Source: a virus (taxonomy: Duplodnaviria; Caudoviricetes). From it: a stretch of DNA of 64,000 nucleotides. The notes beneath the pieces were generated by a model. It was not told the DNA's origin. It made no database searches and saw only the letters and a list, made by a program, of their open reading frames with translations. A program made the position numbers and the translations under genes. The DNA lies in IMG/VR virus record IMGVR_UViG_2784132107_000001. One strand, 5' to 3'. Positions 7,401 through 63,033 of this stretch are shown here, piece by piece (the stretch's first letter is position 1; every line of letters begins with the position of its first letter).

Positions 7401-8934
7401 GCTGTTCGGCGTCGTGCTGCACCGGAGACTTCTGCGCCTCCTTCGTGAGCAGCTTGTCGACGTACCTGTTGTAGTCCGGCGTGGTGCCATGCTCCTGGCC
7501 GTCGAACGCGTGCGCGCCGACCACCACCTCGCCAAGTGCCGGGTGCACCAGGTCTGCGCGCGGGCCGACCTTCGCAAAGAGGCTCTGCAGCAACCCCTCG
7601 CGCGCCTGCGCGCTCTGGGCCTGCTGGGCAGCGGCCTGGGCCTGCGGCTGCTCACGTATATCGAACAGGTTGCCCTGCGTCATCGGCCCCTGTTCAACCT
7701 GGGTCTGCGGCTCGTGCAGCGTGAACGGCGTCTCTTCGCCAAGCGCTGCCTGCACGTCCTGTTCAGTGGTCGCGGGCGGACGGCCGATGCCGAGGTTGCG
7801 ATCGATCATGTCCTGCACCGGCAGGCCCTGCCCGGGACGGATGACGGGCACCCCGTTCGACGGCTGGGTGTCGTACAGGTCACCCTGCGGGCCTGCGTCA
7901 AGCGCCGTATCGTGGCCGGCGTTGAGTGCGTCAACATGCCCGCCAACGTTGTACGGGTTGATCGGGAACAGGTCACCCTGCTGCCCCTGCGATGGGTCGA
8001 GCGCTTCCTCGACAGGATCCGCCGTAGGCGTCCGCTCGTTCGCACCGGGGAGCGCCGAGCGCTGGCCGTGGAACATGCCCATGCCGACACCCGCGAGCGC
8101 ACCGCCGACAAAGCCACCGAGCGCGGACGAACCGACACCCTGGCTCCATGGCTTGCCTTCACCGACGTTCTCACCGGCCGTCGAGCCGGCGTTCATCGCC
8201 GCACCCTGCACACCCTGATCGACTGCGTTGGCGGTGGCACGCCCGAGGAAGTCTCCCGCGAAGCGCGTGCCGAGTGCAGTCGCGGCGGGCGTGAGGAACC
8301 TGCTGCCGAGCCCCACGGTTGCAGCGGACACGGTGCCAGCGACACCGGCAGCCTCGTACATGCCCTTCGTGTTGTTCGGGTCCTGGTCGAGCACGTTCTG
8401 CCCGGCTTCACCGGCGGACTGCGCGCCGAATACGAGCGGTGCGGCGGGGCCAGCGGCCATCCCTACAGCGAGGCCCGGCGCCATCTGCAGCGCGCGACCG
8501 GCGAGCGTGCTCGGGTTGCGCAGCATCGCACCGGCCGTCTGGCCGAATCCATGCGCCTGCTCAACCTGCTGCTCGGCCTGCTGGCGTGCGGCCGAATAGT
8601 CACGTGAGAGGTCCGCCTGCTGCTGGGCACCGTTGAGGTCCTGCGGCAGCGGCATGCCGTGCTGCGCGAGCATCTGGCGATAGTCTTCCATCGCCTGGCT
8701 GGACGTGTTGCCCGAGGCTTCGCTGCCGAGACCCTTCAGCGCCTGGCCAAGCCCCGAGACGCCCTTGAGCACATCCACGCCGAGATCCGCCACGCGACGG
8801 AACGGGCTCTGCCGCGGATGGTCGTCATCGTCCCCCGCATCGACAGGCTGGAACCCCTGCAGCACGCCACCGGACTGCTGGTCAGACTGGGCAGGGCCGG
8901 CGCCTACCGGCTGGAACCCTTCAAGGATCGGCAC
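1492..8934 (-). CDS. Giant internal virion/ejection protein of large polyvalent type (GNAT-like, HTH, HExxH peptidase-like, PLxRFG-like C-terminal region)
   Basis: 2480 aa. Motifs: DSIAVTEDARGRGIG (GNAT motif A-like), MSHRELGDKYGLDHSRITQI (HTH), ITHELWHG (HExxH), PYLPLRRHGDYVV. Last large gene after the other ejection genes. Confidence 0.8.
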   Translation of the reverse strand: MPILEGFQPVGAGPAQSDQQSGGVLQGFQPVDAGDDDDHPRQSPFRRVADLGVDVLKGVSGLGQALKGLGSEASGNTSSQAMEDYRQMLAQHGMPLPQDLNGAQQQADLSRDYSAARQQAEQQVEQAHGFGQTAGAMLRNPSTLAGRALQMAPGLAVGMAAGPAAPLVFGAQSAGEAGQNVLDQDPNNTKGMYEAAGVAGTVSAATVGLGSRFLTPAATALGTRFAGDFLGRATANAVDQGVQGAAMNAGSTAGENVGEGKPWSQGVGSSALGGFVGGALAGVGMGMFHGQRSALPGANERTPTADPVEEALDPSQGQQGDLFPINPYNVGGHVDALNAGHDTALDAGPQGDLYDTQPSNGVPVIRPGQGLPVQDMIDRNLGIGRPPATTEQDVQAALGEETPFTLHEPQTQVEQGPMTQGNLFDIREQPQAQAAAQQAQSAQAREGLLQSLFAKVGPRADLVHPALGEVVVGAHAFDGQEHGTTPDYNRYVDKLLTKEAQKSPVQHDAEQLLSDAWREDRVAAPDQRSTEPGPYPAMSDIDKLVRLTGVNEAPTLAQAAAKIDMAINRLANSKAQTSLDKVQILTAWRNKILHGDVNGQDRSGTEGVNASGAQDSNAQPGGTQSVGPENRGAGSAQDSSAPGPQGPAAAEGSSPAESAQAAEVAQLQGQQPADVQPGSAQAGQEQPVTPPVQKTGGFIQLKRRGGNGQQQQAAAGDVAGRPAGVGPVPVRPAGELRQPLDEQAGAARDSSVRGAGAADSSPAGDAAVPGGGHAAGGTEAQEVTDALAQAQKNNTFAGQAPGAGRTVGRTQPKGTPVGKLFSNFADNVKDTLGGKTAVQKQAEFRAQMFDRANADPKQFTTDPVLTHTEDLGNGLTARVDAAKAGNTRVQILDGDNVVGAAHIKRGMLDSIAVTEDARGRGIGADLLRYLDRNNIANIHEVPDRSPGFVKIQKQVLSEPAPAAPQAPAVKPAPATTADSAQKNEARDRLWREALAGTKNAERDFNILQDHFVNDMSHRELGDKYGLDHSRITQIVGEKSLGPKVVAAANRLGYTPEDIMQLMHEEPADVPTGETAYDENEHAAKAEDATPASADEMRVEGNELHGDEDRGVTQSMGVVKSAGGSQSKWKDTGDLTDQWLKAQKKLAAIEAPAGKNPGAGNASENGGREAWDAHGATSADNVAYDDLPKALRNDWDALVANGDGSRVDRDKWLKARTKVAELEAQAKQNPDAWKTSEDRGREAWEAHEATVPSNVAYDDLPESLRSDWDEFVGNGNGTLADKAQIVNRLDSNDYPDAYQSRSAEFRGVEARYGNVSTVTANLRHLGIPHAVDSVDHWSVSRLPDGVGGEITLNRDGTVKITLNASVLQHGSPALVQHAITHELWHGIDNALHGGVYSVQPEMRLEEFADDWAPEGSVARELHDLWSNDPTDGAFEQYFDYPLNRGQHPDLDRQDAQAELFAQLGSMYTDPRGRAILERYAPESSAFMREVTNDVQQSPEALLARSGDGAEQRATGFENRAAGEPAAVRLREGGSGDAATADAAGSPERSLQSRGPDYDHDSVDERRPRAERLISALPEGLASPVQRTYDTLAHAAKRGTQALTFGHDLADWASSRLGMEAPREYMDLHGEQDAYRRTLDNQLGEIGQKASALSLPQRDMASTFLTETTMSQKWGYDPAWKSGVTVDPATKARFNALPASVQEVIKAVNEHGAAQRSQLRAAEEEVRKMMGADAPRVAGAEMPGPYLPLRRHGDYVVEAKSATYKAAEAAEDTPRMDTLRKDPDHYVYTQTRTMGEARALAKELEAKYGAGNAQPMAKDVYFKDSHGASWRQLEQWRAKMRDYFDTGTPQGKEYAAAMDRALTDMYLQSIADTSARAGELKRKNIPGVIAKQGLESFFQNGLRHNQLVSTMLHGAKIADAMKGMADEAKQGGAQRPARTDIVNEFQKRAIAQANNRPSRVMDNLLMFNTAWRLLTSPAHYLQYIAQPVTMAHPILGARHGYGAAWKEMIGAAQDTAKLGKGGNALKLDVSKHVSRVGDERGMLTTLQRQGVLDAGHESEYGKPEVFSSNQLTRAGATAMNKVTMVARGLEGYNRTLSALAAYRLAHADSLNRGGDADAAHAAGTKFARDVVRQAYGDYSAANTPRALMPGNAPGLPVRLMAQFRKFNIIHTSIVARLAHQAFTGASPEERVVGGKALGYMALHYGVLAGAMGIPGAQLLAYAIQKIFSDSDVPEDPESYFRRVIGDKFLADIILHGAPAALGIDLTNRIGAGDILNPLGRANVNGGKTAADDYKSYMLAALGPMLGTTLPNVLTGAGRIMQGDYYHGLEQMVPSGIRDGMKAYGLAADGLTNSRNDTIIKPEDISAFDVALQAAGVTPMKIEDSYRRAAEFHNAQTFFQQHSQQMVNQYAKAYRDGDSATLRDLQGQWKTMQEQMRSNGLKPSPFSTLLRAPMNQGRRENSIVGGVETGRSRGAYIQQQGEQ
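4221..4460 (-). CDS. Candidate overprinted (+1 frame) gene nested in the giant gene
   Basis: GAGGTG-7nt-ATG; 79 aa; overlies a low-complexity linker of the host protein. Confidence 0.5.
   Translation of the reverse strand: MSSNLQKRFSLARAMAQNSAPRVSKIAQPANLQPFDFAKAEAAMQQQQTQPGAQSVASSPVDPTTTTTPSTNADPAQNV
6585..6815 (-). CDS. Candidate overprinted (+1 frame) gene nested in the giant gene
   Basis: GGAGAGG-TGGAA-ATG; MDSNSKPLPGTLLDDPQAWDPYQF..., protein-like composition. Confidence 0.55.
   Translation of the reverse strand: MDSNSKPLPGTLLDDPQAWDPYQFDQQVSCDNRLTSKQEPHETAAYEAREQRIAARLGMPLYLVADMQLAGPKPRK
6870..7142 (-). CDS. Candidate overprinted (+1 frame) Pro/Lys/Ala-rich basic protein nested in the giant gene
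   Basis: GGAG-7nt-ATG; repeated PK(V/I)xxP units; GC-rich third positions in this frame. Confidence 0.6.
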   Translation of the reverse strand: MAKIGAGPKVSMPAAPKIATPNLAGPKVSAPKIAVPAAPRIAAPQALKAPPPPKVAAPPKAPKPPKSPNFKDNNRQMYSQDLPKPGKNSL

Positions 8935-8943
8935 GCGCGCTCC

Positions 8944-10356
8944 TTAATAGTTCGCGTTGTCGTAGAGACCCGGCTGCGTCGGCATGCCCGCAGGCAACGG
9001 TGCACCACCCCCGCCCTGCGGGTTATAGCCCGGCGGCGGCAGCGGCGGCGGGTTGCCCCCTTGCGGTAAGGCCGTCTGACGCTGGGGCGTGAAGGTCGCA
9101 AGGGCTTCCTGCTCGCTGCCGTACCACTGGCCATCCGAGCCCTGATACCCCGTCTGCCCCTGCGCGTTCTGTGCGGTCGGCACGCCGTTAGGGGTGGTCT
9201 TGCCACCGGGCGCACCCATGCCCTGCCCGAGCTTCGTGACCTTCATCTGGCCGTTCTTGCCCATCTGCACGACGGTGCCGCCGTTCTGGTCCAGATACGT
9301 GTTCGGGTTGTTCGGGTCGGCCATCCACTTCGGGCGGTTGCCCTGGGCCTGCACGCGCGCGGCGGCCGTATTGGCACCGCCATAGGCACGCGCGTAGGCC
9401 ATGCCGTTGGGCGACGAAACCATCAGGTATTTCTGCACGAGCGCCTGGCCCTGCGGCGAGGCAAGCTGTTCAGGCGTGAGTGCGTTGAGCTGGTCACGCA
9501 GCTGACCGGCGGCCCGGGCGGTGCCGAGGTTGACGTCCTCGAGGTTGGTCTGCGCATTAGTGAGGCCCGTGCGCGCCTCCATCTCGCCGGCCTGGGCGCC
9601 GTACATCTGGCCGCGCTGCGGAGCAATCAACGCTTCCGCGTTCGACTGGTTGGCAGCGCCCGTGTTGCGGGCGATCTCGGACGGCGCCATCGAGGCGCGC
9701 GTGCCTGAGTCCTGCAGCGCGGCCTGCCCGTGCAGCATCGACGCATCGGCCGTCTGCATCTGCGGCAGCAGGGTCGGGTCGGCGGCCAGCAGCGAGTTGC
9801 GCAGGATGCCGTTCTGCAGCGCGCCGGCCCCCGCGAGCAGCGTGGGCGCATGCGTGAGGTCGTAGGTCTGCCCGCTCGGCTGGCCATTGGGGTTCATCAG
9901 CGCGAGCGAGTTGCCATCGGGCGAGAGCTGATACTTGATGCCCTGCAGGTCGGCCTGCGAGAGCAGGGTCTTGCGCGCCGTGGCGATGTCGCCCGAGCTG
10001 ACCGCCGAATCCACGCTGTTATAGAAGTCGTGCGCCGCCTTGCCGGCATCCATGATGCCCTGTGTCTTCGTGTTCGCGAGGTTGAGCCCCGTCGCCTGCG
10101 CGCCCTCGCGGCCGTACTGCATCGCCTGCAGCGGCTGGCCGTGACGGGCCATCGCCGTCTGGACATCCTGGTTATAGGTGGGCGAGTTGGGGTCGAGCTG
10201 CGAAAGGTCCTGCTGCAGCCCCACCGTCTGCTGGTACTGGTTGTTCTGGACGTTGTACTGCAGCTGCCGCAGACGGTTCTGCTGCATCTGGTCGTAGACG
10301 TTCATGCCGCTGTTCATCGCGGCACCCGCTGCAACCCCCCAATCGATGTGGCCCAT
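8944..10356 (-). CDS. Putative internal virion (ejection) protein
   Basis: 470 aa, Gln/Ala/Gly-rich; lies between the pilot-like gene and the giant gene. Confidence 0.65.
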   Translation of the reverse strand: MGHIDWGVAAGAAMNSGMNVYDQMQQNRLRQLQYNVQNNQYQQTVGLQQDLSQLDPNSPTYNQDVQTAMARHGQPLQAMQYGREGAQATGLNLANTKTQGIMDAGKAAHDFYNSVDSAVSSGDIATARKTLLSQADLQGIKYQLSPDGNSLALMNPNGQPSGQTYDLTHAPTLLAGAGALQNGILRNSLLAADPTLLPQMQTADASMLHGQAALQDSGTRASMAPSEIARNTGAANQSNAEALIAPQRGQMYGAQAGEMEARTGLTNAQTNLEDVNLGTARAAGQLRDQLNALTPEQLASPQGQALVQKYLMVSSPNGMAYARAYGGANTAAARVQAQGNRPKWMADPNNPNTYLDQNGGTVVQMGKNGQMKVTKLGQGMGAPGGKTTPNGVPTAQNAQGQTGYQGSDGQWYGSEQEALATFTPQRQTALPQGGNPPPLPPPGYNPQGGGGAPLPAGMPTQPGLYDNANY

Positions 10357-17632: not shown

Positions 17633-18823
17633 TCACTGTTTGCCCGGCTGCCAGAGCCGCTGATACCGGCTCTTGTTGACCAGCGTCAGGTTGTTGACGC
17701 GATACGTGCCCGGGATGCTGGCGGAAATCGCCACCTGGATGTACTGGACCCCGGCGGGGATGACGAACTCGTGCTGGTAGATCTTTTGCTCGGGCTCCTG
17801 CCCGTTGTTGACCATCGACACCAGCTGGGACCAGCCGCTGCCGTTGTTGGTCATGATCTGCACCAGCAGCCCCTGGATCTCCGAGGTGACGGTCATGCCG
17901 CTCGTCGCGATGCACCCGCTGAAGGCGAGCGTGTCGCCCGCCGCAAAGCCCCCATCGGCCACGCCGATCGCGTTTGAGTTGAGCAGGTAGGAGTTGGCGG
18001 TGCCGGGCTTCGTGTAGACGAACGTCTTCCCCGTGTAGGGGTAGCCCAGCGTGGGCTCGTAGGTGACGGTGCCGTTGCCCGTGTCGGACGTCCAGCCGGC
18101 CAGGTTGGGGCCGATGAAGTTCACGAAATTGCCGTTGATGAGCATGTTGGCCGGCGCACTGTCCGTGGTCTCCGGGAAGATCCCGAAGTACGGCAGCCGG
18201 CGGAACTGGTACGGGTTGCGCAGCAGCGCCGCCGTGGGGCGGGCGATCTCGTCCGTCCCTGCCGCGTTCGGGTGGGTACCGTCGATCGTGTAGGCGGTGA
18301 CGTAGCCGCCCAGCGGATCCGCTGCATTGATGGTCGCGGTGCACGCATCGACCAGCGGCACGCCATAGCGCTCCGCGAGCAGGTAGTAGAAGTACCGGTT
18401 CATGTACGCGTCCGGCACGCCCGTCTTGGCGGGCGGCACGACGATGAACGGATACACCCCGCTGTTGATGCAGCCGTGCACGATCTGCTCGATGTAGTTC
18501 ATGTACGAGGCGGCGGCCACCGTGCCGAACGTGTTCACCGGCACGTCGTTGGTGCCGGCCATGATCGTGATGCAGTCCGGGCTGTAGGCGAGCACGTCCG
18601 ACTGCAGGCGTGCGGCGATCTGGTAGCTCTTCTGGCCGAAGATCCCGGCGTTCGAGATCAGGCGCAGGCCCGCGCGCCACGCGGCCTTCTCGGCGAAGCT
18701 GTTGCCGAACTGCCAGTAGCCATTGGTCTCGCCCGAGTTCGCCTGGGTGATCGAGTCACCGAGCGGGATCATGGTGCGCAGGACCGGCTTGAACGCCGGC
18801 GGCGTCGGGTTATTGAGCGCCAT
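17633..18823 (-). CDS. SGNH/GDSL esterase plus C-terminal beta-sandwich domain
   Basis: GDSIT, NAGIFG, GTND, DGTHP blocks. Confidence 0.88.
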   Translation of the reverse strand: MALNNPTPPAFKPVLRTMIPLGDSITQANSGETNGYWQFGNSFAEKAAWRAGLRLISNAGIFGQKSYQIAARLQSDVLAYSPDCITIMAGTNDVPVNTFGTVAAASYMNYIEQIVHGCINSGVYPFIVVPPAKTGVPDAYMNRYFYYLLAERYGVPLVDACTATINAADPLGGYVTAYTIDGTHPNAAGTDEIARPTAALLRNPYQFRRLPYFGIFPETTDSAPANMLINGNFVNFIGPNLAGWTSDTGNGTVTYEPTLGYPYTGKTFVYTKPGTANSYLLNSNAIGVADGGFAAGDTLAFSGCIATSGMTVTSEIQGLLVQIMTNNGSGWSQLVSMVNNGQEPEQKIYQHEFVIPAGVQYIQVAISASIPGTYRVNNLTLVNKSRYQRLWQPGKQ

Positions 18824-24035: not shown

Positions 24036-25040
24036 TCAGTTCGCTGCGAGGAGCAGCGCGAGACCGGCCGGCTGCGTGACCTGGTAGCCGTAGATGTTCA
24101 GGCCGCGGACCAGGTTGCCGAAGTCGTTCGGGTTCTGCAGGCTCTCGACCTTGGCGATCTGCGAGGCGAAGCTGATGGCCGACTTGTGGCCCGCCACGAT
24201 CGAGTGACGCTTGGCCGTGCCGCCCGAGACGCCGCCGAAGAAGTCGTGACCCGAGGTCGCGCGCGGCGTGAGGTTGCTCACATACACCGTGAAGCGGTCG
24301 ATCTGGCCGATCTTGCCGTTGCGCAGGATCGAGCTGCCGTCACCCATGAACTGCGCCTGGGCGAGGTTCGATTGCATCAGGATCTGACGCTCGGTCGGGG
24401 TGATGATGAGCCAGCGGTCCGTCTCCGGCACGTTGTTCTCGTCGAGCACCGAGCTGAGCGAGGTGATGTACGACAGGATGTTGGCCGGCGTGAGCGCGAC
24501 CGGCGCCGTGTCAGTGCCGAGGTTGTACGCACCCGAGATCGCACCGGCGGTCGCGCCCATGTTGGCCGCGGCACCCTGGTTGTACGTGCCAAGCAGCACG
24601 TCCTTGTCCACCGCGATTTTCATCTGCATGCTCGCGTCGTTGGTGAACATGTCCATCAACTTGGGCTTCGCCTGCAGTTCGAGGACGTTATTCACGTTGA
24701 CCCCGAAGTACTTGCCCTTGTTGATCTGCAGGGTGATCGTCGACGGCGTCGGCACGTCGTAGTTCAGCGACTGGCCGATGCTGTAGTTGTAGATGTTGAT
24801 TGTCGGGATCGTGTTGATGATGACCGTGTCACCAAGACCCGAGATGTCGCCCTGCCAGTCCGTATTGGCGATCTCGCCAAAGACGGTGGCGGCATAAAAT
24901 TTCTGCGCCAGCTTGCCCGACCAGAGGGCCGGGATGAAGGTACCGGAATACGCGGTGCCTGCGTAGGCAACCTGTCCGGCCGGCGAGTTAAAGCCGCCGG
25001 CGTTGATCGGGTAGACTGCGCCCGGGGTGATGGTGGTCAT
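24036..25040 (-). CDS. Major capsid protein
   Basis: 334 aa; FIPALWSGKL, NTDWQGDI..GDTVII, LDENNVP..RWLI, VRGLNIYG; follows the scaffold gene. Confidence 0.88.
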   Translation of the reverse strand: MTTITPGAVYPINAGGFNSPAGQVAYAGTAYSGTFIPALWSGKLAQKFYAATVFGEIANTDWQGDISGLGDTVIINTIPTINIYNYSIGQSLNYDVPTPSTITLQINKGKYFGVNVNNVLELQAKPKLMDMFTNDASMQMKIAVDKDVLLGTYNQGAAANMGATAGAISGAYNLGTDTAPVALTPANILSYITSLSSVLDENNVPETDRWLIITPTERQILMQSNLAQAQFMGDGSSILRNGKIGQIDRFTVYVSNLTPRATSGHDFFGGVSGGTAKRHSIVAGHKSAISFASQIAKVESLQNPNDFGNLVRGLNIYGYQVTQPAGLALLLAAN

Positions 25041-26712: not shown

Positions 26713-28953
26713 TCAATTTCCAAAGTGGTTCGTGACCGGGGCGCCGGTCGCGAGCTGCGCGCCGGGACCGGGTCGCGGCGGCGGTACCATCCCGGGGCCG
26801 GGCGGCGGCGCACCGCCTGGGCCCACCAGCATCTGGGCCATCTGCTGGGCACCCTGCACCTGCTGGGCCGCGGGCATGGTCGGCGGGAACACGCCGTGCT
26901 TGAGCATCATCTGCTGGGCGAACTGGCGCTCGGCCTGCGCGAGCTGGGCCTGCTGCATCTGCTGCTGCTGGGCGGCCTGCTGGGCCCAGCGCTGCTTGAG
27001 GATCGGCAGCGGCGCGACGATCTCGTCCACGTTCATGTCGAGCGTCTTCGCCGCGTTGCGCAGCAGCTCCGCAATGCCTTCCTGGCCGACCACCTGCTGC
27101 ACGATCTGGTTCGACAGCGCGATCTGCAGGAACTCGTTCTGGCGCTGCTGGGCCGCCTCTTTCTGCATGAGCGAGGCTGCGCCGCGCGCGACGACGTTCA
27201 CCGCCCCCTTGAGGTCCGGGTCGTTCGAGTAGCGCATGTTGTAGTAGTAGAGCCGGTCCACCGCGGGCTCGGTGACGCGGTCATCGATGTTCGAGATCAC
27301 CTGCTTGACCGCCTTGCCGGCGTTGGTCATCAGCATCGACATGCCCGAGGCCGTCCGGCCGGCGCCGCCCGAAGGCGAGTCGCCCGTCATGTAGCGCGGG
27401 ATGCCCGTGTACTCGTCGGCGAGCGTGGCGAACTTCTCGTAGATCTGCATGAGCTCGCCCGCGATCGACTGCGGCTGCATGAACTGCATCGGCGGCTGCG
27501 AGCTCGAGAGCGGGTCGCTCGTTACCTGCCAGATTTTCCACGGGTAGAGTTGCGTGATTTTTTCGCCTTCGGGGAGTCGATCGACGTTGTAGACGACCTG
27601 GGGGCCGCTGGCCAGTCCCATGTTGTTGACCAGAGCACGAGCGGCAGCATTACAAATGTCCTGTGTATCTCGGCACAGATCCGCCACGCTGTTACCCCAA
27701 AAGGCTCCTGGTACTTCTTCATAGCTTGCCTTGTAGTACGGTTTGCGACCCAGCGGGTCGGGATTGATGACGGCCTTGATGACCCAGTTACCGATCAGCC
27801 ACGCTTCAACCGGGTATTCAAGGAGCGGGTCATCGATCTCAGAGTCGTCCATGCCCCAATCAAGGAGCATCTGACCCTGTACCGATCCCCAGAACTGCAG
27901 CGCGTCAATAAGTTCGCTGGGGTTCGTCGCAACACCAATGGTCGCCTTACCCTCTGCAGTGGCCTGCGCCGTATCAACATAGATCCACTCCCGAAGGCCC
28001 CCCTTGCCGTAGGCGTCGAGCACCCCACGGATCGCCTGGTCCGAGTAGCCATCCACCCCGAGGAGCGCCACCAGGTCAGCACGATGCAGCTTGTGACGCT
28101 CGATGAGCCAGCCGTCCTCGATGGTCGAGGCATCGGGCGCCGGGTACATGTGGAACGGGTCGACCCGCTCCCACTCCATCACGAGCTCGTCCTGCACGTC
28201 CGGCGCAAAGCCGCCGGGACCCTGCACCCACTTGAGCTTCGGACGGCGGCGCACGACCGGGCCCTTCATGAAGGCGCTCGGGAACGTGGTGATGTCGTCA
28301 ATGAATTCGCCGAAGGCGCGCACCCAGCCCCCCTCGATGAGCTGGGTCTGCATCTTCTTTTCCATCCGGTCGGCGTCCTGCTGCGCGAGCTCCTGGAGCT
28401 GCGCGAGCGCCATGTCCTTCAGCGCGAGGAGCATCTGCCGCACGTCGAAGTCAGACGGGTTCTGGCCCTGCCCGTACATCTGCTGGATCTGCTGCTGGGC
28501 GATCTGCATGACCTCGGCCAGCAGGTCCGGCGGCATGTCCGCAACCGGCGGCGGACTGAGCGACCAGGGCTTGTCCTCGGCCGTTGTCACCAGCACGTCG
28601 CGGATCCATGAGGCGGCAGCCCGGCACTTGTTGCTCGTGAGCATCATGTAGACGGTCGTGCTGCCCTGCTCGGCGAGGATCGCGAGCTTCTCCGGGTCGT
28701 ACTCGCCGCGGCGCTGGCGCACCGACTTGAGCATCTTCAGTTCGGAGGTCATTTCCTTGGCCTGGCGGGCCTGCCACCAGAGCTTGCGGATGTGGGCGGC
28801 GAAGCCCTGCACCACCGGCTCGTTGTTGGCCGCCTGGGCGGCGGCCCTGTCCTCGGCCAGCAGCTGCGAGACCGACTTCACCGGCATGATGCCGCCGATG
28901 TTAGTACTGCCAGGCGCGACGCCGGAGGTGATGTTCAGGGCTTGCTGTGCCAT
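26713..28953 (-). CDS. Portal protein
   Basis: 746 aa; ERVDPFHMYPAP, GAFWGNSV, ADEYTGIP, GRTASGMSML; Gln/Pro tail. Confidence 0.88.
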   Translation of the reverse strand: MAQQALNITSGVAPGSTNIGGIMPVKSVSQLLAEDRAAAQAANNEPVVQGFAAHIRKLWWQARQAKEMTSELKMLKSVRQRRGEYDPEKLAILAEQGSTTVYMMLTSNKCRAAASWIRDVLVTTAEDKPWSLSPPPVADMPPDLLAEVMQIAQQQIQQMYGQGQNPSDFDVRQMLLALKDMALAQLQELAQQDADRMEKKMQTQLIEGGWVRAFGEFIDDITTFPSAFMKGPVVRRRPKLKWVQGPGGFAPDVQDELVMEWERVDPFHMYPAPDASTIEDGWLIERHKLHRADLVALLGVDGYSDQAIRGVLDAYGKGGLREWIYVDTAQATAEGKATIGVATNPSELIDALQFWGSVQGQMLLDWGMDDSEIDDPLLEYPVEAWLIGNWVIKAVINPDPLGRKPYYKASYEEVPGAFWGNSVADLCRDTQDICNAAARALVNNMGLASGPQVVYNVDRLPEGEKITQLYPWKIWQVTSDPLSSSQPPMQFMQPQSIAGELMQIYEKFATLADEYTGIPRYMTGDSPSGGAGRTASGMSMLMTNAGKAVKQVISNIDDRVTEPAVDRLYYYNMRYSNDPDLKGAVNVVARGAASLMQKEAAQQRQNEFLQIALSNQIVQQVVGQEGIAELLRNAAKTLDMNVDEIVAPLPILKQRWAQQAAQQQQMQQAQLAQAERQFAQQMMLKHGVFPPTMPAAQQVQGAQQMAQMLVGPGGAPPPGPGMVPPPRPGPGAQLATGAPVTNHFGN

Positions 28954-30526: not shown

Positions 30527-31708
30527 TCAGCTGTTGAGCAGCTGGCCCGGCTTCCAGATCGCCTGGGTGGCGGTCTTGTTCCACAACGTCATGTTCGCAC
30601 AGGTGTACGAGCCCAGGTCCATCGTGTACAGCGTCGGCGTCAGGCCGCCGGACACCTGGCTGGCCGGCATCACGAACTCCTGCGAGAAGTCGAAGGTGCC
30701 AACGGTCAGCTGCCCGGAGAACGGCCGCACGTGGTCGCCCGTCATGTCCAGCGCCAGCGTGAACCCGCTCATTGTCGCGGGCGTGGGGCCCGAGACAATG
30801 AGCCGGCCCGAGAACACCAGCGTGTCGTTGGCCGAGTAGCCCGTCGTGATGCCCGGGGCGTACAGCGCGTAGGCGGGCGCCGTCGTCAGCGTGTAGGCGA
30901 ACAGGTTGCCCGTGTAGGGCTGCGCGGCCGGGGTGAGCGTCCACGAGCCGTACGTGGTGCTGACCCCCCAGTGGTCGGGCGTGCCGGGGATCGTCTGCTG
31001 GGCAAACGAGCCGTTTGCGATCAGGTTCGCCGGCTGGCCGGTCGAGGTCTCCGAGTACGCGGCGAGGTAGGTCGGCGAGAAGTAGCTGTCGATATTGGCC
31101 AGCACCAGCGAGGCCTGCTGCGCGATTGCCTGGATGCCCGCCGGACCCGGGTGCGTGCCGTCCGGCGAGTAGCCCGTCAGGTAGTTGCCGGTGGCCGGAT
31201 CGACCGTCACGCGGTAGGTGTCGATCAGCGGCAGGTGGTAGTAGTCCGCCAGCAGGTAGTAGAACAGCTGGACCTGGCGGCTCTCCGGCGCGGCGGCGTT
31301 GCGCACGGGCGGCGTCACGAGCACCGGCATGATGTTCGCGTTCAGCAGCCGCAGGATGATCTTCTCGATGTTGTTCATCATCGAGGCCATCGCGGCGCCG
31401 GTCATGCCCGACGTGATGTCGTTGGTGCCCCCCATGAAGAGCACCACGTCGGGTGCGTAGGCGATGACGTCGGACTGCACGCGCGCCAGCATCTGCGCGG
31501 TGGTGTTGCCCGGGATGCCGGCGTTGCGCACGAACTGGTACTTCGGACCGGCCATGCGGATGGAGGTCTCGGCGTAGCCGGTGGACTGGTACCAGATACC
31601 GTCCGCGGACGCCCAGGAGGTGCTGGCGGTAATGGAGTCGCCGAAGGGGATGATGCGTCGCAGGTTGTTATGGATAATCGGGAAGCCGCTACTGGTGATG
31701 GTCGTCAC
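30527..31708 (-). CDS. SGNH/GDSL esterase, paralog of 17633..18823
   Basis: GDSIT, NAGIPG, GTND, DGTHP; collinear similarity with 17633..18823 to the C-terminus. Confidence 0.88.
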   Translation of the reverse strand: MTTITSSGFPIIHNNLRRIIPFGDSITASTSWASADGIWYQSTGYAETSIRMAGPKYQFVRNAGIPGNTTAQMLARVQSDVIAYAPDVVLFMGGTNDITSGMTGAAMASMMNNIEKIILRLLNANIMPVLVTPPVRNAAAPESRQVQLFYYLLADYYHLPLIDTYRVTVDPATGNYLTGYSPDGTHPGPAGIQAIAQQASLVLANIDSYFSPTYLAAYSETSTGQPANLIANGSFAQQTIPGTPDHWGVSTTYGSWTLTPAAQPYTGNLFAYTLTTAPAYALYAPGITTGYSANDTLVFSGRLIVSGPTPATMSGFTLALDMTGDHVRPFSGQLTVGTFDFSQEFVMPASQVSGGLTPTLYTMDLGSYTCANMTLWNKTATQAIWKPGQLLNS

Positions 31709-31819: not shown

Positions 31820-33220
31820 TCAGGCCCAGTGCCACGCCACCTTCTCGACCGGCTGCACCTTCGAGCGCATGCTGCCCCCTGTCAGGTTCCCGTCCGCATG
31901 CAAACAGGCGTACTGGTGCGCGTCGGCGATGTGACTGTGCATGTTCTTCTCCGGCTTGTCCTCCATCTCGCCGTTGGTGCGCAGCTTGTAGCGGTACCCG
32001 CCGCGCAGCGCCGCGATGAGCGCGCGGCACCGCGGATCGATCAGGTGGGCCGGCTTGCTGTCCACCATGCGGGTGAGCCACGAGTCGACCGCGCTGATGC
32101 GCGCGGGAATCGCGTTGGTGCGCGCCGGGATGACCCGGAAGCCCTCCTGCTTGAGGATGTCGAACACGCTGCGCTCATCGGTCTGGGCGCGCTGCTGGCC
32201 GGCCGGGTCGCCGATCACGAGCACGTTCATCCCGGCGAAGCGCTGCGCGAGCAGGGGTTTCAGCTTCTCGCGGCAGAAGCGCAGCGCCCCCATGCCGTCC
32301 GAGGTGAGGTTGTCGTAGGTGAGCAGCCGCCCCTGCGGATCGATCTGGTTGATCGTGCAGGCCGGCGTGAGCCCGAAGTCAAAGCCGATCATCAGCGGGT
32401 GGGTGCTCATGCGGATCGGCCGCAGCTCGTTTTTCGCGACGTGGATATCGCGGTCGAACGCGCGGAACACCGGCTGGCCGGCAAGCGACTTGCCGAACTT
32501 CGCATGCACGTAGACATCGATCCAGTCCTGGCTCTTGCCCTCGCAGAGGTTTTCGTAGTAGTCCGTCTTCAGGTACTCGAGCCAGTCCGCCTCCGGGCTC
32601 ATGCCCGAGGGCTGGATCCACGCATCGGCGTTGGACGGCGGCTCCGAGATGAACTGCTCCCAGAACGTGTCGGCGTCGGGCGGGTTACTCATCCCCCAGA
32701 ACTTGTCGATCGCGTGGCCGAAGTCATCCTGGCACCCTACCCCGTTGTCCGCCTTCGACGGGTAGCGCCCGAGACGCGCCTGCAGCGCGCGGAACACGTC
32801 CGGGTTCAGCTCCCGGAACTCGTCGGCGATGCCGAAGGTCGCCTGCAGCGACAGCAGCCGGCGCACGTCGTTCGAATCATCGAGCCCGCGGAACAGCACC
32901 TCGCACTCCACGTCGGCGAATTTCAGTGTGAACTTGTAGTTCGTCTTCTCGAAGGTGCCGGCCACGCCGTCCGGGAACCAGCGAAGCCAGTCTGGTATCG
33001 ACGTGTCGCGCAGCTGCTCGCGCGACTGCCGGATCCAGATCGCCCGGGAGCGCCGGATACCGTCCCGGCACGCCTTGATCTTCCTCGCCTCGTGCGCGAC
33101 CTTGAGGATGCCGGCGGTCGTCTTGGTCGACCCCACGGGGCCAATCACCAGGTTGATGAACTTGTTCGACGTGAAGAAGTCGACCAGCGACGGAGGGGGG
33201 GTGTAGACGAGACCGGTCAT
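31820..33220 (-). CDS. terL: Terminase large subunit
   Basis: Start MTGLVYTPPP at 33220; Walker A GPVGSTKT, Walker B IADEFRE, nuclease GFDFG, GDPAG, HIADA. Confidence 0.93.
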   Translation of the reverse strand: MTGLVYTPPPSLVDFFTSNKFINLVIGPVGSTKTTAGILKVAHEARKIKACRDGIRRSRAIWIRQSREQLRDTSIPDWLRWFPDGVAGTFEKTNYKFTLKFADVECEVLFRGLDDSNDVRRLLSLQATFGIADEFRELNPDVFRALQARLGRYPSKADNGVGCQDDFGHAIDKFWGMSNPPDADTFWEQFISEPPSNADAWIQPSGMSPEADWLEYLKTDYYENLCEGKSQDWIDVYVHAKFGKSLAGQPVFRAFDRDIHVAKNELRPIRMSTHPLMIGFDFGLTPACTINQIDPQGRLLTYDNLTSDGMGALRFCREKLKPLLAQRFAGMNVLVIGDPAGQQRAQTDERSVFDILKQEGFRVIPARTNAIPARISAVDSWLTRMVDSKPAHLIDPRCRALIAALRGGYRYKLRTNGEMEDKPEKNMHSHIADAHQYACLHADGNLTGGSMRSKVQPVEKVAWHWA

Positions 33221-33678
33221 TCGACGAGAGGTTTGGAGGGGGTGATGTCGATCTCGCGCGGCTTCGAGGTGTCCGGCAGGTTGATCGTGATGGAGAAGCC
33301 CGTGCCCTGCTGCGCCGTGGCGGACTGTTTGGGCTCCTTCCACTTGACCAGCGCCTCGGTGAGCGCGAGCTTCTGCATGAGCGGCACCTCGGAGGACAGG
33401 CCGATCTTGCCGATGTCGTCGAGCATCATCTCGGCGAGCAGCCCCGCCTTGGCCCGGAAGGTCCACCCTTCCGCCTCGAGCTCCGCGCGCTTTTTCTGCA
33501 CCGCGTCGAGAAACGGCTTCCACTGCACGAGCGCATCCCACCGGGCGCCCTTGAAACCAAAGCGCCGGGCGATCTCCACCGGGTCCTCGATCCCCTTCGC
33601 CATCTCGGCCACCATCTCGGCCGGCACGTTCAGGTTCGCATCTTCAAGTGGGTCGAAGGTGACCAGCTTGTCACTCAA
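33217..33678 (-). CDS. Probable terminase small subunit
   Basis: GGAG-8nt-TTG start; helical; ends GFSITINL; directly upstream of terL. Confidence 0.65.
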   Translation of the reverse strand: MSDKLVTFDPLEDANLNVPAEMVAEMAKGIEDPVEIARRFGFKGARWDALVQWKPFLDAVQKKRAELEAEGWTFRAKAGLLAEMMLDDIGKIGLSSEVPLMQKLALTEALVKWKEPKQSATAQQGTGFSITINLPDTSKPREIDITPSKPLVE

Positions 33679-33947: not shown

Positions 33948-34125
33948 TGCCCTTGTGCCCGTTCTCGAGAAAGTCGGCGAGGCCGCGCAGGCCCTGCGCG
34001 ATGCGCCAGTTCATCTGCTGGTCGGTCAGGTCGCCGGCCGCGCTCACATCCAGCACGCCACCGTCGCCGATGAAAAAGTCGATGTGGAAGAACGACTCGG
34101 GCTCCGTCTTTTCGGCATCGCTCAT
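33931..34125 (-). CDS. Hypothetical protein
   Basis: 64 aa; coupled to the RHH gene. Confidence 0.6.
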   Translation of the reverse strand: MSDAEKTEPESFFHIDFFIGDGGVLDVSAAGDLTDQQMNWRIAQGLRGLADFLENGHKGNGQAN

Positions 34126-34271
34126 TTCGGGTCCTTCAGGTAGTCCGCCAGCGCACGGCGCACGTGCTCCGCGACGGGCGTGCCGGTCTCGGCCGCCTTG
34201 GCCTGCAGGGCCTCGTACAGTTTTTCAGGAATGAAGAAATTCCTGCGGGTCATCGGTTCGAGCTTGGACAT
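34122..34271 (-). CDS. Ribbon-helix-helix (CopG/Arc-like) DNA-binding protein
   Basis: Translated by hand (below ORF-track cutoff): MSKLEPMTRRNFFIPEKLYEALQAKAAETGTPVAEHVRRALADYLKDPK; first gene of the late arm. Confidence 0.8.
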   Translation of the reverse strand: MSKLEPMTRRNFFIPEKLYEALQAKAAETGTPVAEHVRRALADYLKDPK

Positions 34272-34579
34272 GGCTGGGCGTGGAAACAGCGGGCAGGTGT
34301 GCTCACTGACAGGGTCATGTTAGCAAGTTGTCGTGTGTATGTGAAAGGGTTGCCGTGAGGTGCGTAGGGTGTGTGTAGGTAGTGAAAATGGCAGGCGCTC
34401 TACATGTGAGGGGTAAGCGAGGACCCCACCCCCTGGCAGGTGGTCCATCCCCCCCATACCCCCGCCCCCGTCGACCGTACCGCGTCTCATTCGCGTTGCG
34501 GCGCGGTGAATTCACCGATCGACCCCCCTTAAGGGACCCTTTTCGTCCTGAGCAAAGCGGTAGCGTGAAAGGTAGTGCG

Positions 34580-35145
34580 TAGCAGCGGGTTCGAGTGGTA
34601 GCGCAGCGGAAACCTGGGGTCTGTTAGTTGGTTGTGACCCCAGGCGAGTAGCGAGCGGATAGTGTCCCCCTTGTGGAACGTGAGGGGGCATGGGGGAGTG
34701 CGTTTTGTTAGCACTCCGGCCCAAAACACGAAACCACCATAACGGACAACGTACCCCGCTGCAAAACACTGGCGAGTATCGGCTAGCGCCCGGATGGTCG
34801 GACCAAGCGCCAGACAAGCGCCCGGATAATCGCCGCCTAGGAATCGTTCACTCGCCGAAACTAAGTGATCCGTGGCATACGGGTTTAAGCGCCCGTATGC
34901 TGGCAATATGTGCGCCGTTTGTCCAAACGGGTTCAAGCACCACAGGGTTTCCCCTTGTGGTTGTGGCGACCTAGTAGCGAACGAGCAAGCGCATGCACAA
35001 AGCGTAGTGCGTTGCACATTGTCAGTCACCAATTTTCCATAGGTCTGGATGGTCAAACGGTGACGAGAGTCGCAATTGTTTTCATCCCCTGCATACAACA
35101 GGGGTGGACAATTGAGAACACCTAGCTATGCTGGGTTTTCTCTGT
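34580..35145 (+). ncRNA. Candidate large structured RNA/leader of unknown class
   Basis: More than 10 hairpins plus long-range closing stems (e.g. 34582-89 with 34755-62), G-U pairs on the + strand, no credible ORF. Confidence 0.55.
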
Positions 35146-35177
35146 TGTTCAACTTCAATCATTTAGGAGTGTGAATC

Positions 35178-35711
35178 ATGTCAAACGCTAAACAAGCAAA
35201 GGTTGCCCTTTTGTCCAAAGATGAAGCGCTGAAACTCATTAAGACAAACGGAAACCGTATCGTTTCGTTGCGCGATGACTTGCAGCGCATTGCCGTTGCT
35301 GCCATTGGCTATGCGAACGTGCATGGTGATGTGACTATCGCGCAAGCGGCCGTCGCAGTCATGACAAAAGGTGTAACGGCGTCGAAATTCATAGCGTACC
35401 TATGCGCGCATGGTCAGCTTGAAAAAGATGACAAGCTGGGGGTTCGGTACATCAAACGCGATGATGTAACCAAGGATGTCGCTGAACTGGTTACCACATT
35501 GGCGGATAAAAAGTGGTTCGACCATACCGCGGCGCGTGTCAAGAAAGAGGAATACGACGCCAAGGATGAACTGCAGCGCGTCATTACCCGGCTGCAAAAG
35601 GCAGCGAAGAAAGAAGGGGTTGTCGTCCACTATGAAACCCTGCTTGCGCAGGTGGCGTTGGTGGTGGCGAAAGGTGTCGACGTGGAATTGCCCCTGCCGA
35701 AAGCAGCGTAA
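35178..35711 (+). CDS. First early gene, hypothetical protein
   Basis: TAGGAG SD; 177 aa; HGDVT motif; lower GC than the late arm. Confidence 0.85.
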   Translation: MSNAKQAKVALLSKDEALKLIKTNGNRIVSLRDDLQRIAVAAIGYANVHGDVTIAQAAVAVMTKGVTASKFIAYLCAHGQLEKDDKLGVRYIKRDDVTKDVAELVTTLADKKWFDHTAARVKKEEYDAKDELQRVITRLQKAAKKEGVVVHYETLLAQVALVVAKGVDVELPLPKAA

Positions 35712-35725
35712 GTGCAGTAACCCTC

Positions 35726-35747
35726 CCCCGGGCGCAAGCCCGGGTTT
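35726..35747 (+). terminator. Terminator-like hairpin
   Basis: CCCGGGC-GCAA-GCCCGGG-TTT. Confidence 0.6.
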
Positions 35748-35836
35748 AAACAGCGCATCCAAGTTGTACATGTGTGTGCTGTTTAAACCAAAGTACCACG
35801 AACATCGCCGGTTGCCCGCTAAGCCTTGTCGGGCGG

Positions 35837-36165
35837 GAATTGGACAAACTCTGAAAAATGTTCCATCCAATTGTCCAATTCGGTTTCTATATTCCACGCG
35901 GGTTTGCGGGTCGTTTTGGTGAATTGGATAAATGGATGTAAAAAAAGAATGGATACGTACGCGAGGCCAGCCATCCGTGGATCCATGTGCGACATACACA
36001 CACATTCCGCGCGTCTCATTAGAGTGAATGTTTTTTTTGCATCCAAATTGCCAATTCACCCTCTCGATCGCCCGCAATCCCTTACCCAGCATGGCTTACA
36101 AGAATTGGACAAAGCTCATCCAATTCAAAATAATTCCATCCAATTCAACCGATTTTGTCCAATTC
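35837..36165. repeat. AT-rich RTCCAATTC repeat cluster with large inverted repeat (candidate origin)
   Basis: About 8 copies in both orientations; imperfect IR 35918-35946 / 36032-36060. Confidence 0.7.
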
Positions 36166-36443
36166 AACCGCGTGGCACCTATCACAAACAAACTGCGCAC
36201 ACGCGTACAGCTTGTTTAAGCTAGAAACTTGTGCCAACTTGTTTTTCTGCATTGTACGGTCTGTTCGGGACTTTCAGCGATCCCCCCCACGTACAAACGT
36301 GGCAACAGAACCCACAATGCAGATTATTAAGTTGGTACACGTTTCTAACTTAACACGTAGCACATGCATGTATAGCTTGATGTTTAAGTTAGACATTGGC
36401 GTGCTGTTTGTTCCAGCACCACTAAACCACTAAGGAGTGAGCC

Positions 36444-36566
36444 ATGAAAGCGGTGATGATTGTCTTGTTTGTCGTCGTGTGCATCGTGGGGGCGTTCTTC
36501 GGGTCTGCGGTGGGATACATGCTCGCAGGCAAATTCGGCGCACTGGTCCATGCACTCTCACTCTGA
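36444..36566 (+). CDS. 40-aa membrane peptide
   Basis: TAAGGAG SD; MKAVMIVLFVVVCIVGAFFGSAVGYMLAGKFGALVHALSL. Confidence 0.65.
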   Translation: MKAVMIVLFVVVCIVGAFFGSAVGYMLAGKFGALVHALSL

Positions 36567-36678
36567 GGGCCGGGTTTAATTTCCCCTTGACTACCTACTA
36601 ACATACACATATCTTACGCACTCAATCCCCTAACTTTTGATTCAACCATCTAACATGTAGACAACTTGAGGACGTGCC

Positions 36679-36933
36679 ATGACCCCCGAAGAACTCCAGC
36701 AACTCGTGGAAGCTGTGCGTCAGGCCAACGCGGAAGCCGCGGTCGGACTCGAGCAGCAGCACGACGAGCACTGCAAGGTACGTTGGCGCCGCCGGCTGAT
36801 GGTGTGCGCTGTCGTGGCGGCTGCGCTGTTCGCATGCGGCCACCTGTTCCACATCGAAGAACTGTTCAAGGGCTGGGAGCTGCTCGCCGCTGCCTGCGTG
36901 GACAAGTTCGTGTTCGGTATCGCAGAAGCGTGA
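36679..36933 (+). CDS. Hypothetical membrane protein
   Basis: GAGG SD; 84 aa; one TM segment. Confidence 0.7.
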   Translation: MTPEELQQLVEAVRQANAEAAVGLEQQHDEHCKVRWRRRLMVCAVVAAALFACGHLFHIEELFKGWELLAAACVDKFVFGIAEA

Positions 36934-36948
36934 ACCAGGGAGAAAAAC

Positions 36949-37173
36949 ATGATCGTTTGTCACGACCGGATTATCGCCAAGGCGCGCGGACGCATCCAGG
37001 CCGAACTCGCTGACTGGAGACATGCAGCTGATGCTCGCACGGGACTGAACTATCTATGGTCATACTGTGAAAAGGAGGACCACAACTACATCCGGCAATC
37101 CTGCCGGGATACGCGAACGATCGTCGCAGACGCTGCGCGTGAGATCGCTGAGATCAACTGCATCGAGTTGTGA
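36949..37173 (+). CDS. Hypothetical protein
   Basis: GGAG SD; 74 aa. Confidence 0.65.
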   Translation: MIVCHDRIIAKARGRIQAELADWRHAADARTGLNYLWSYCEKEDHNYIRQSCRDTRTIVADAAREIAEINCIEL

Positions 37174-37246
37174 CTCCAGCTTGGAGTTGATCCAGCCTCT
37201 GCGTTCCCTCGGCTACCTGTAACCCCACACTATATAGAGGTGCGTC

Positions 37247-37351
37247 ATGCGTAGCTCCGCTCCATTCATCCTCGCCACCATCGGCCAGCTCGGGCTCGCC
37301 CTGATCGTGGAGTTCACCAAGCTGGTGGTCTTCACGCAGCCGGTGTTCTGA
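37247..37351 (+). CDS. 34-aa hydrophobic peptide
   Basis: GAGGTG SD; MRSSAPFILATIGQLGLALIVEFTKLVVFTQPVF. Confidence 0.55.
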   Translation: MRSSAPFILATIGQLGLALIVEFTKLVVFTQPVF

Positions 37352-62699: not shown

Positions 62700-62718
62700 G
62701 TAGTTGTTGGGGGCCTTA

Positions 62719-62746
62719 CCCCGGGCTTCGGCCCGGGGATTTTTTT
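62719..62746 (+). terminator. Rho-independent terminator
   Basis: CCCCGGGC-TTCG-GCCCGGGG-ATTTTTTT. Confidence 0.85.
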
Positions 62747-62757
62747 CGGGGAATTCC

Positions 62758-63033
62758 ATGAAGACAATCGACATCCTCGTGCAGCAGTTCAACGCTGCCT
62801 TCATCCCGCTCGAGGCCGTGCGCCTCGCCTACTTCCCGCACCTGTCAGCCGACCTGATGCAGCGCCGCGCACGCAATAACGAACTGGGCCTGCCGGTCAC
62901 ACGGTTTGACCGCTCGCAGAAGTCCGCCCTTGGGGTCCACGTGGAAGACCTGGCGAGCTACCTGGACGGCCGCAGGGCCGAGGCGCGCAAGGAGTTCAGC
63001 GCAACAAAAGATCAAGTGCAACAGTCTGCCTGA
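62758..63033 (+). CDS. PrtN (pyocin activator)-family protein, probable excisionase
   Basis: IPLEAVRLAYFPHLS..LPVTR..SQKS..GVHVEDLASYLD; adjacent to att. Confidence 0.8.
   Translation: MKTIDILVQQFNAAFIPLEAVRLAYFPHLSADLMQRRARNNELGLPVTRFDRSQKSALGVHVEDLASYLDGRRAEARKEFSATKDQVQQSA

Follow-up and report, generated by a model that had tools for sequence, protein, structure and literature searches.

What is encoded in the 906 bp that separate the two divergent gene arms of a prophage, and what would it do there? This question is raised by a stretch of 64,000 nucleotides (nt), hereafter called the window, which forms part of a 9.2-Mb bacterial genome, carries the prophage and is listed as IMG/VR record IMGVR_UViG_2784132107_000001. 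The divergent gap (34272-35177) lies between a - strand arm and a + strand arm and houses a folded element, for which an earlier note had proposed a multibranched, RNA-like structure of about 560 nt (34580-35145). On comparative grounds, the + strand between about 34580 and 35165 specifies a large structured RNA whose conserved core covers at least 34838-35164 (about 330 nt), and the full element probably measures about 590 nt. To judge from the alignments described below, this RNA is a member of an undescribed family which occupies the same syntenic junction, between the terminase/structural arm and the replication arm, in uncultivated podophage relatives. The reading which we favour, with a probability of roughly 0.6, is that of a cis-acting structured leader RNA with a switch module at its 3' end, which would control entry into the 28-kb replication arm.

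The + strand of 34580-35145 (566 nt) folds at -229.8 kcal/mol, compared with -200.4 +/- 6.7 kcal/mol for 100 dinucleotide shuffles (z -4.40), none of which reached so low an energy (0/100). Both sub-regions, 34580-34770 (z -2.65 on the + strand and -3.71 on the - strand) and 34771-35165 (z -5.38), also beat their shuffles, and the comparison on which the earlier note had made its proposal depend thus turned out in its favour. Because the adjoining 34272-34579 is unstructured (z +0.8 on the + strand and +2.0 on the - strand), the structure begins near 34580, and six coding controls of 190 nt each gave z values between -0.88 and +1.97; neighbour and controls together counter chance folding of the type expected from a GC-rich spacer. 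The - strand of 34580-35145 folds equally well (z -5.14), so that energy alone gives no choice of strand. Open reading frames (ORFs) within the gap have a flat GC content over the codon positions (0.52-0.66); in the neighbouring genes the GC content at third codon positions is 0.84-0.86. For the 189-amino-acid (aa) ORF at 34529-35098 on the - strand the values are 0.57/0.53/0.58, no Pfam family was found in the five gap ORFs tested, and these two results rule out a protein-coding reading of this and the other ORFs. The gap contains neither a tRNA nor a tmRNA. The stems listed in the earlier note are all present at their coordinates, in the sequence, among the inverted repeats (I5, I21, I22, I25, I7 and I23) and in the minimum free energy structure. 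One of them, GGCGAGT/ACTCGCC (34771-77/34850-56), clashes with the 5' arm and the loop of hairpin b (34848-34868), which is conserved in the family, and is therefore probably a non-functional pairing. Likewise, the proposed length of about 560 nt has to be qualified: the stems exist throughout, and homology to the family is demonstrable for about 34838-35164 only, the fold of 34580-34770 being backed by its energy.

Relatives of the locus were found through the 177-aa protein encoded directly downstream of the gap by gene 35178 (35-43% protein identity), and this search yielded five viral contigs and seven metagenome loci, one of which is partial and two of which are identical over the region. 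A scan with an RNA motif gave 20 pattern matches, comprising six family members and 14 chance hits, and newly added L148 and L154. The family as it stands consists of 13 distinct members, i.e. the window and 12 uncultivated relatives (labels L005-L016, L148 and L154). An ORF-poor gap of 683-927 nt precedes the gene in each relative with enough upstream DNA, and in the largest subgroup a 209-aa ORF and the large terminase lie beyond this gap on the opposite strand, which is the synteny of the window. At all six loci that were found through the RNA motif alone, a 35178-like gene is located downstream. Two further search words were discarded: a scan with the motif CTAGTGCATA..TGTAG was swamped by chance (at least 117 stretches with two family members, both already known), and a 17-mer shared with L005 occurred in six stretches, with the family represented in one, L005's own contig. 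DNA similar to the gap was found neither in phage records nor in 100 related genomes, and the first-gene protein was found neither in 396 genomes of the taxonomic family (four unscored) nor in a species-representative genome collection.

When the last 220 nt of the gaps are aligned, three consecutive hairpins appear at fixed positions with stem sequences that differ. Three covariance models were built from the relatives alone, with the window excluded: R1, composed of hairpin A and the long hairpin B (eight seed sequences); R2, representing a three-way junction designated D/C (seven seed sequences); and R3, composed of hairpins a, b and c (ten seed sequences). R1 matches the + strand of the window just upstream of gene 35178 with 31.4 bits (E 3.2e-4), and the window forms 22 of the 23 non-gap consensus pairs of this 3' module. 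The model also detects L011 and L015, which are not in its seed, and, with filters off, weakly L016 and L005 (E 0.021 and 0.029). R3 detects hairpin b alone (model positions 33-65) in the window, on the + strand at 34838-34870 (17.8 bits, E 0.0012). The R1 and R3 matches are collinear, lie on the + strand and are the sole ones in the 64 kb, so the 3' module and hairpin b are common to the window and the family, with order and strand unchanged. A search with R1 over 150 genomes of the genus gave no match, the window's own genome being likewise missed at the threshold used.

The helices of the family vary in sequence while pairing is kept. In the alignment of the 3' module (A8, 11 sequences) 92.2% of the cells are paired, compared with 68.7% after shuffling and 40-51% when the alignment is slid, and 17 of 25 pairs changed on both sides; the corresponding values for hairpins a-c (A13, 11 sequences) are 94.8%, 65.8% and 34-45%, with 19 of 25 pairs changed, and for the D/C junction (A11, seven sequences) 97.0%, 83.8% and 24-49%, with 23 of 39 pairs changed, all of these alignments being fitted to the structure, with 7-8 sequences that are close kin, so that the shuffle counts are not to be read as probabilities. 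In view of the slid controls and of how many independent pair types occur, a conserved fold is the only reasonable reading of these alignments, and covariation among homologues, the absence of which the earlier note had named as a ground for refutation, is present. The three alignments contain 123 G-U or U-G cells versus three A-C or C-A cells, from which it follows that the RNA of the + strand folds, in the direction of gene 35178; selection on the opposite strand or on double-stranded DNA would reverse or erase this asymmetry. The argument for RNA from G-U pairs, drawn earlier for the window, therefore holds family-wide, and together with the flat codon-position GC and the lack of Pfam families it bears out the description of a non-coding, multi-hairpin, RNA-like element on the + strand that heads the rightward arm.

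The 3' module is composed of two hairpins and four short segments, which are listed in Table 1. Hairpins A and B abut, with 0-1 nt between them, in 13 of 13 members. Helix 1:2, formed by segments 1 and 2, includes six pairs that are paired in 11/11 sequences, three of which covary (pairs 5-49, 6-48 and 9-45). Helix 2:3 includes five pairs (43-99 to 47-94) that are also paired in 11/11 sequences, with covariation at 45-96, and is recognizable by eye in 13/13 members. Helices 1:4 and 3:4 are 92% and 84% paired, respectively. Helices 1:2 and 2:3 share four columns of segment 2 (44-47), each extends beyond the shared part, and they are mutually exclusive. Both are apparently selected and yet exclude each other, which argues for two alternative conformations. 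The 3' module thus has what characterizes attenuators and riboswitches, namely helices that exclude each other and of which each has been preserved through compensatory changes, and these exclusive, covarying pairings suggest a conformational switch. Together with its 2:3 extension, hairpin B is an irregular helix of about 20 bp interrupted by a conserved internal loop, a predicted geometry which is consistent with an RNase III site, and the end of the long hairpin is located 24-29 nt before the ATG in the ten of ten members visible in the alignment. In the window, a simple terminator scan was passed by 35120-35136 plus TTTCTCTGTT. A leader-peptide attenuator was rejected, since no short ORF is conserved among the 13 members: ORFs of at least 15 aa that start in the last 130 nt vary in start, frame and length, and L014 has none.

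In the favoured reading, transcription of the rightward operon would begin with the element, as a 5' leader that acts in cis. The 27 nt between hairpin B and the ATG are too few for a promoter, and the gene would consequently be read from the leader transcript. Segment 2 would have segment 1 and segment 3 as alternative partners, this switch lying 24-29 nt before the start codon, and depending on the fold, hairpin B would either close into a long helix or be a shorter hairpin with a U-rich tail behind it, the latter form resembling a terminator in some members. In this manner the 3' module would set the transcription, processing or translation that passes into the arm, and the upstream multi-helix domain with its invariant loops would serve as a platform for a phage or host factor. 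A cis-acting switch is, as we infer, the best-supported mechanism for this putative function.

Several observations weigh against this reading. A convincing rightward promoter was not found in the gap, and the sole sigma-70-like match on the + strand (35105-35132) is not conserved in the relatives; the leader transcript, with its start and its 3' end, is a predicted one. A length of 450-600 nt with many invariant loops exceeds that of typical cis-acting leaders. A strict terminator rule, which allows no bulges, was satisfied at the position of hairpin B in only two of 13 members, the window and L148, so that attenuation by termination is not family-wide. The segments are also compatible with a static three-way junction (helix 1:4, 92% paired, together with helix 2:3), and their arrangement a/a'/a/a' allows two complete nested folds. 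Further points concern the kinship of the window with the family. No homologue of 34580-34770 was found, and the fold predicted there has its energy as support. Hairpin a (loop CTAGTGCATAG) is missing in the window, the R3 match covering hairpin b only; hairpin c of the window is not detected by R3, and the loop motifs of the family hairpin c (TGTAATGG) are absent from it. R2 finds its seven seeds and no other, non-seed member, its best score in the window at the expected place being 3.5 bits (E 2.2, filters off). To these points the fitted nature of the pair-count alignments has to be added.

Table 1 Features of the divergent gap and the start of the rightward arm
Feature	Position	Strand	Remarks
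Leftward sigma-70-like promoter	34317..34345	-	TTCACA-17-TAACAT, with TG; consensus match alone; in front of RHH/Arc-like gene 34122-34271
5' multibranch domain	34580..34770	+	Closing stem 34582-89/34755-62 encloses hairpins 34613-44, 34663-92 and 34695-717; window-specific
20-nt block CAAGCGCCAGACAAGCGCCC	34804..34823	+	Identical in otherwise diverged L005; blastn-short 20/20, E 8e-6
Hairpin b	34848..34868	+	Stem TCACT/AGTGA, conserved loop CGCCGAAAC, then conserved linker TCCGT
Hairpin c	34875..34900	+	GCATACGGG/CCCGTATGC, 8-nt loop; perfect 9-bp inverted repeat I22
Middle hairpins	34910..34960	+	GTGC[CCGTTTG..CAAACGG]GTTCAAGCAC, then CCACAGGG/CCCTTGTGG
Hairpin D	34985-35015	+	Contains GCGTAGTGCGTT
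Hairpin C	35025-35064	+	GTCACC/GGTGAC
3' module	35073..35164	+	R1 match 35070-35164; order: segment 1, TTTTC, hairpin A, segment 2, hairpin B, segments 3 and 4
Segment 1	35073-79	+	3' module; followed by U-rich TTTTC
Hairpin A	35083-35106	+	3' module
Segment 2	35105-35114	+	3' module
Hairpin B	35114-35142	+	3' module
Segment 3	35144-35151	+	3' module
Segment 4	~35156-35163	+	3' module
Shine-Dalgarno sequence and start codon	35165..35180	+	AGGAG 35165-69, ATG 35178; first gene of rightward arm, 177 aa, PHROG 1448, function unknown

Upstream of the 3' module, the likeness between the window and its relatives is uneven. The 20-nt block shared with L005 is located within three AGCGCCCGGAT-like repeat copies at 34785, 34817 and 34888 (repeat family D1). 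At hairpin b, a 25-nt stretch of the window matches L015 at 92% (E 5e-4); the helix is 90.9% paired in the family, with six of seven pairs changed on both sides, and this hairpin with its CCGAA loop, a feature of the family, is present in the window (R3 match). Hairpin c is placed where the family hairpin with loop TGTAATGG stands, a positional correspondence in the alignments, and the first of the middle hairpins resembles, by eye in the alignments, the family element ...GGGTTCGTGCGTAGTGG. Hairpins D and C are located where the relatives have the three-way junction (seven relatives, 97% paired). The window hairpins at the positions of c, D and C are not detectably homologous to those of the family.

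Of the other explanations, the one that survives best is a free-standing, stable non-coding RNA, either an ornate RNA like ROOL and GOLLD or a partner RNA of the 177-aa protein, which would act in trans, with expression of the gene as a by-product. Such an RNA would end at hairpin B or be cut there from the leader, e.g. by RNase III acting on the hairpin of about 20 bp, and the long irregular duplex with its conserved internal loop, which is terminator-like in the window and in L148, would suit either ending. With its length of more than 330 nt (window) or about 440 nt (relatives), at least seven covarying helices and invariant single-stranded loops (CTAGTGCATAG, TGTAATGG, CCGAA and GCGAAAC), the conserved core goes beyond what an attenuator needs, and the co-occurrence with the gene at the six of six motif-derived loci fits an RNA-protein pair. 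We nevertheless consider this explanation a minority possibility, because the lack of promoter room between hairpin B and the ATG obliges the gene to be expressed by read-through of the RNA's own transcript, the distance to the start codon is constant, segment 4 borders directly on the ribosome-binding site, none of the large-RNA families of Rfam matches, and the 177-aa protein has no recognizable RNA-binding fold.

The abutting hairpins of all 13 members, at the head of a very long arm of co-directional genes, also recall processive antitermination of the type known from HK022 put, in which two stem-loops make RNA polymerase terminator-resistant; an RNA antiterminator was the second hypothesis of the earlier note. 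Hairpins A and B would then bind the elongating RNA polymerase and render it resistant to terminators over the 28-kb arm, among whose annotated genes no N-, Q- or NusG-like factor was seen. The likeness to put lies in the layout, with two stem-loops side by side in the leader that precedes a long phage operon. In contrast to put, however, the element is much larger, the module closes a long leader instead of directly following a promoter, and put is not known to have alternative pairings or a further 300-500 nt of conserved structure; moreover, the upstream ops-like word (see below) is not conserved and the host has no clear RfaH. An antitermination RNA of this kind is therefore doubtful.

An element acting at the level of DNA, such as operator or iteron sites recognized by a phage DNA-binding protein, an origin, or packaging or terminal sequences, with the repeats representing protein half-sites or cruciforms, appears more improbable still. 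It would accommodate the equally good folding of the - strand, the look of the four segments as two copies of a palindrome (ATTGT..ACAAT), the resemblance of segment 2 of the window to an iteron that is repeated at least nine times just after the gene, and the G-rich GGGGGTGGGG words that recur in the gaps in either orientation. It does not explain why the helices differ in sequence from lineage to lineage with their complementarity kept, why the loops rather than the stems are invariant, or why G-U cells so outnumber A-C cells, an asymmetry unexpected for double-stranded sites or cruciforms; the segment-2 word, furthermore, is not repeated downstream in the relatives. A GC-rich spacer with functionless hairpins can practically be dismissed, for although high-GC DNA folds well, the shuffle z-scores set against the unstructured neighbours, the two independent model matches and the family covariation all speak against it.

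A cis-acting leader with a 3' switch module was also compared with known RNA classes and systems. None of the 4227 families of Rfam 15 matched at gathering score anywhere in the window, and at E values up to 10, five sub-threshold matches were obtained for 34200-35250, the best being JUMPstart with 17.3 bits (cut-off 35, E 0.96); inside the gaps of the relatives there was no Rfam match. The earlier note had recognized no known class, and in terms of Rfam families this holds: the element is not ROOL, GOLLD, DicF, STnc100, pRNA, a riboswitch or a known ribozyme. It was found neither in Rfam 15 nor among the descriptions in those parts of the phage large-RNA literature that the search covered. 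Like ROOL and GOLLD, the element is several hundred nt long, contains many helices, occurs in phage genomes, has no known function and was detected by covariation. Unlike these RNAs, which tend to be located close to tRNA genes, it has a constant place immediately in front of a single gene and closes with a switch-like module. Like the dicBF/DicF leader of Qin and STnc100/PasD, the element is a long stretch devoid of ORFs and rich in hairpins that precedes an early operon of a prophage and consists of separately conserved modules, but it matches neither DicF nor STnc100 in sequence or by Rfam model, and it comes from a different phage lineage, related to HMO-2011-type and RHph_TM3_14A-like (Rhizobium) podophages.

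The first early gene of T7 lies behind some 0.9 kb of non-coding DNA, and its start codon is preceded, at a distance of about 30 nt, by a long and irregular hairpin, the RNase III site R0.3. The element resembles the T7 early leader in having a long hairpin shortly before the start codon of the first gene and differs from it in the extensive conserved structure upstream of this hairpin. In the P4 immunity region (CI RNA with seqA, seqB and seqC) and in classical attenuators, alternative pairings decide whether transcription continues. The element is similar to these in that, within the leader of a replication operon, one segment has complementary partners on both its 5' and its 3' side, and, as in P4, the arm encodes a P4-alpha-like primase-helicase. 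It is dissimilar in that a conserved leader peptide is lacking, nothing supports action in trans, and no sequence relation to them was seen.

Three further candidates were rejected. The word AGCGGTAGCGTG at 34556-34567 on the + strand, 13 nt before the structured region, agrees at 11 of 12 positions with the consensus of the RfaH-loading ops 12-mer. It is the sole such site in the window and is absent from the 12 relatives, and the only NusG-family match of the host genome scores 51.9 bits compared with an RfaH cut-off of 144.5. JUMPstart/ops-RfaH antitermination was discarded, as the word is not conserved, JUMPstart stays below its cut-off and a clear RfaH is lacking; the ops-like word is probably due to chance. 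An rrn- or lambda-type boxA was rejected because the one CGCTCTA, at 34395, is not conserved in the relatives. A type III toxin-antitoxin system was rejected because there is no tandem array but three dispersed 16-nt copies, and the downstream protein belongs to no Pfam family.

The 177-aa product of the first gene gives few clues of its own. It matched no Pfam family and no PDB sequence (best E 0.81). An AlphaFold2 model was obtained with a mean predicted local distance difference test score of 74.7, for which Foldseek returned no PDB match at E <=0.001 and VIA-align only generic helical matches (best Z 5.6), and no recognizable RNA-binding fold was seen in the PDB sequence, Foldseek and VIA-align searches. 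In cultured Autographiviridae, distant homologues are encoded by the gene that is second from the left end, behind about 950 nt in which no gene is annotated, and R1 and R3 gave no match in three cultured Autographiviridae that carry such a homologue.

The DNA directly after the gene (35712-36450) is ORF-poor and lower in GC content (about 50%), and 35705-36460 folds at -278.9 kcal/mol compared with -200.2 kcal/mol for shuffled sequences (z -11.3). It contains at least nine iteron-like copies (CCAATT; GAATTGGACAAA; CATCCAATTCAA) in both orientations between 35837 and 36167 and an inverted repeat with arms of 50 nt (36216-36265/36304-36353). Translated similarity of this stretch to the downstream DNA of the relatives was not found. 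The stretch 35712-36450 is a candidate replication origin or operator array. In two relatives, matches to the type II hammerhead ribozyme are located directly 3' of the 35178-like gene, in L154 at 2017-2072 (35.8 bits, E 4.7e-4; gathering score 37) and in L009 at 2980-3039 (24.6 bits), and such a match is absent from 35600-37300 of the window. These matches suggest a predicted self-cleavage of the RNA of the same operon in the relatives.

Both arms of the prophage are long and uniformly oriented. The structural and packaging arm on the - strand includes the genes for a giant DarB-like protein (1492-8934), the major capsid protein (24036-25040), the portal protein (26713-28953) and the large terminase (31820-33541), and its last gene is a 49-aa ribbon-helix-helix (RHH)/Arc-like gene at 34122-34271 (RHH_1 match in Pfam). 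Judged by the portal protein, Rhizobium phage RHph_TM3_14A (37.6% identity) is the closest cultured phage, with HMO-2011-type phages coming next. The replication arm on the + strand, which starts at 35178 and extends over 28 kb, encodes an ATPase, an HNH endonuclease, a DNA polymerase, a helicase and the P4-alpha-like primase-helicase. A homologue of PrtN (pyocin activator) is encoded at the right end of this arm, and integrase fragments with phage-integrase domains are found at both ends of the window (coordinates of the integrase and PrtN genes taken together: 56-1003, 62704-63033 and 63431-64000). In the virion-gene arm, two lipase/esterase-like genes (17633-18823 and 30527-31708, - strand) are present, and a 2480-aa protein resembles DarB-like antirestriction proteins in its C-terminal part. 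ARAGORN called an 89-nt tRNA-Asn(GTT) at 9636-9724 on the + strand, inside the - strand ORF 8944-10356 of the structural arm; its unusual length and its place within a coding region suggest that the call may be false.

The promoter-proximal part of the gap has features of its own. The leftward promoter-like site in front of the RHH/Arc-like gene would form the left edge of a shared control region, and in the relatives an equivalent, TTTACA-17-TATATA, was read from the alignment beside their minus-strand gene. Next to this site, AGGTGCGTAGGGTGTGTGTA at 34358-34377 is 95% identical over 20 nt to a similarly placed block of L011 and may be part of a divergent promoter/operator region. Runs of the GGGGGTGGGG type (34423-34470 in the window) occur two to four times in the promoter-proximal part of every gap of the family; on the + strand they are rich in C in three members (the window, L011 and L015) and rich in G in the remaining relatives, the orientation flipping between lineages. 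In L007 (= L002), about 100 nt inside the gap, an insertion that is also promoter-proximal carries a reverse-oriented word like a tRNA T-arm, which may be the remnant of an attachment site.

A bolder form of the favoured leader reading can be conceived, which we consider rather unlikely: an ornate phage RNA of about 450-600 nt would license the whole arm, as a sensor plus switch or as a modifier of RNA polymerase, with no dedicated protein antiterminator, and would perhaps also exist as a stable processed RNA working with the 177-aa protein. Large structured RNAs with strong covariation are, to our knowledge, rare, and nearly every one that has been studied revealed new biochemistry. The RNA described here is useful for such study, as its place in the genome, at the start of the replication arm, is constant, its neighbour is a conserved protein of unknown fold, and the two exclusive pairings of its 3' module are directly testable by compensatory mutants. 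If the bolder form were true, an RNA alone would decide on the expression of the 28-kb replication arm of a temperate podophage.

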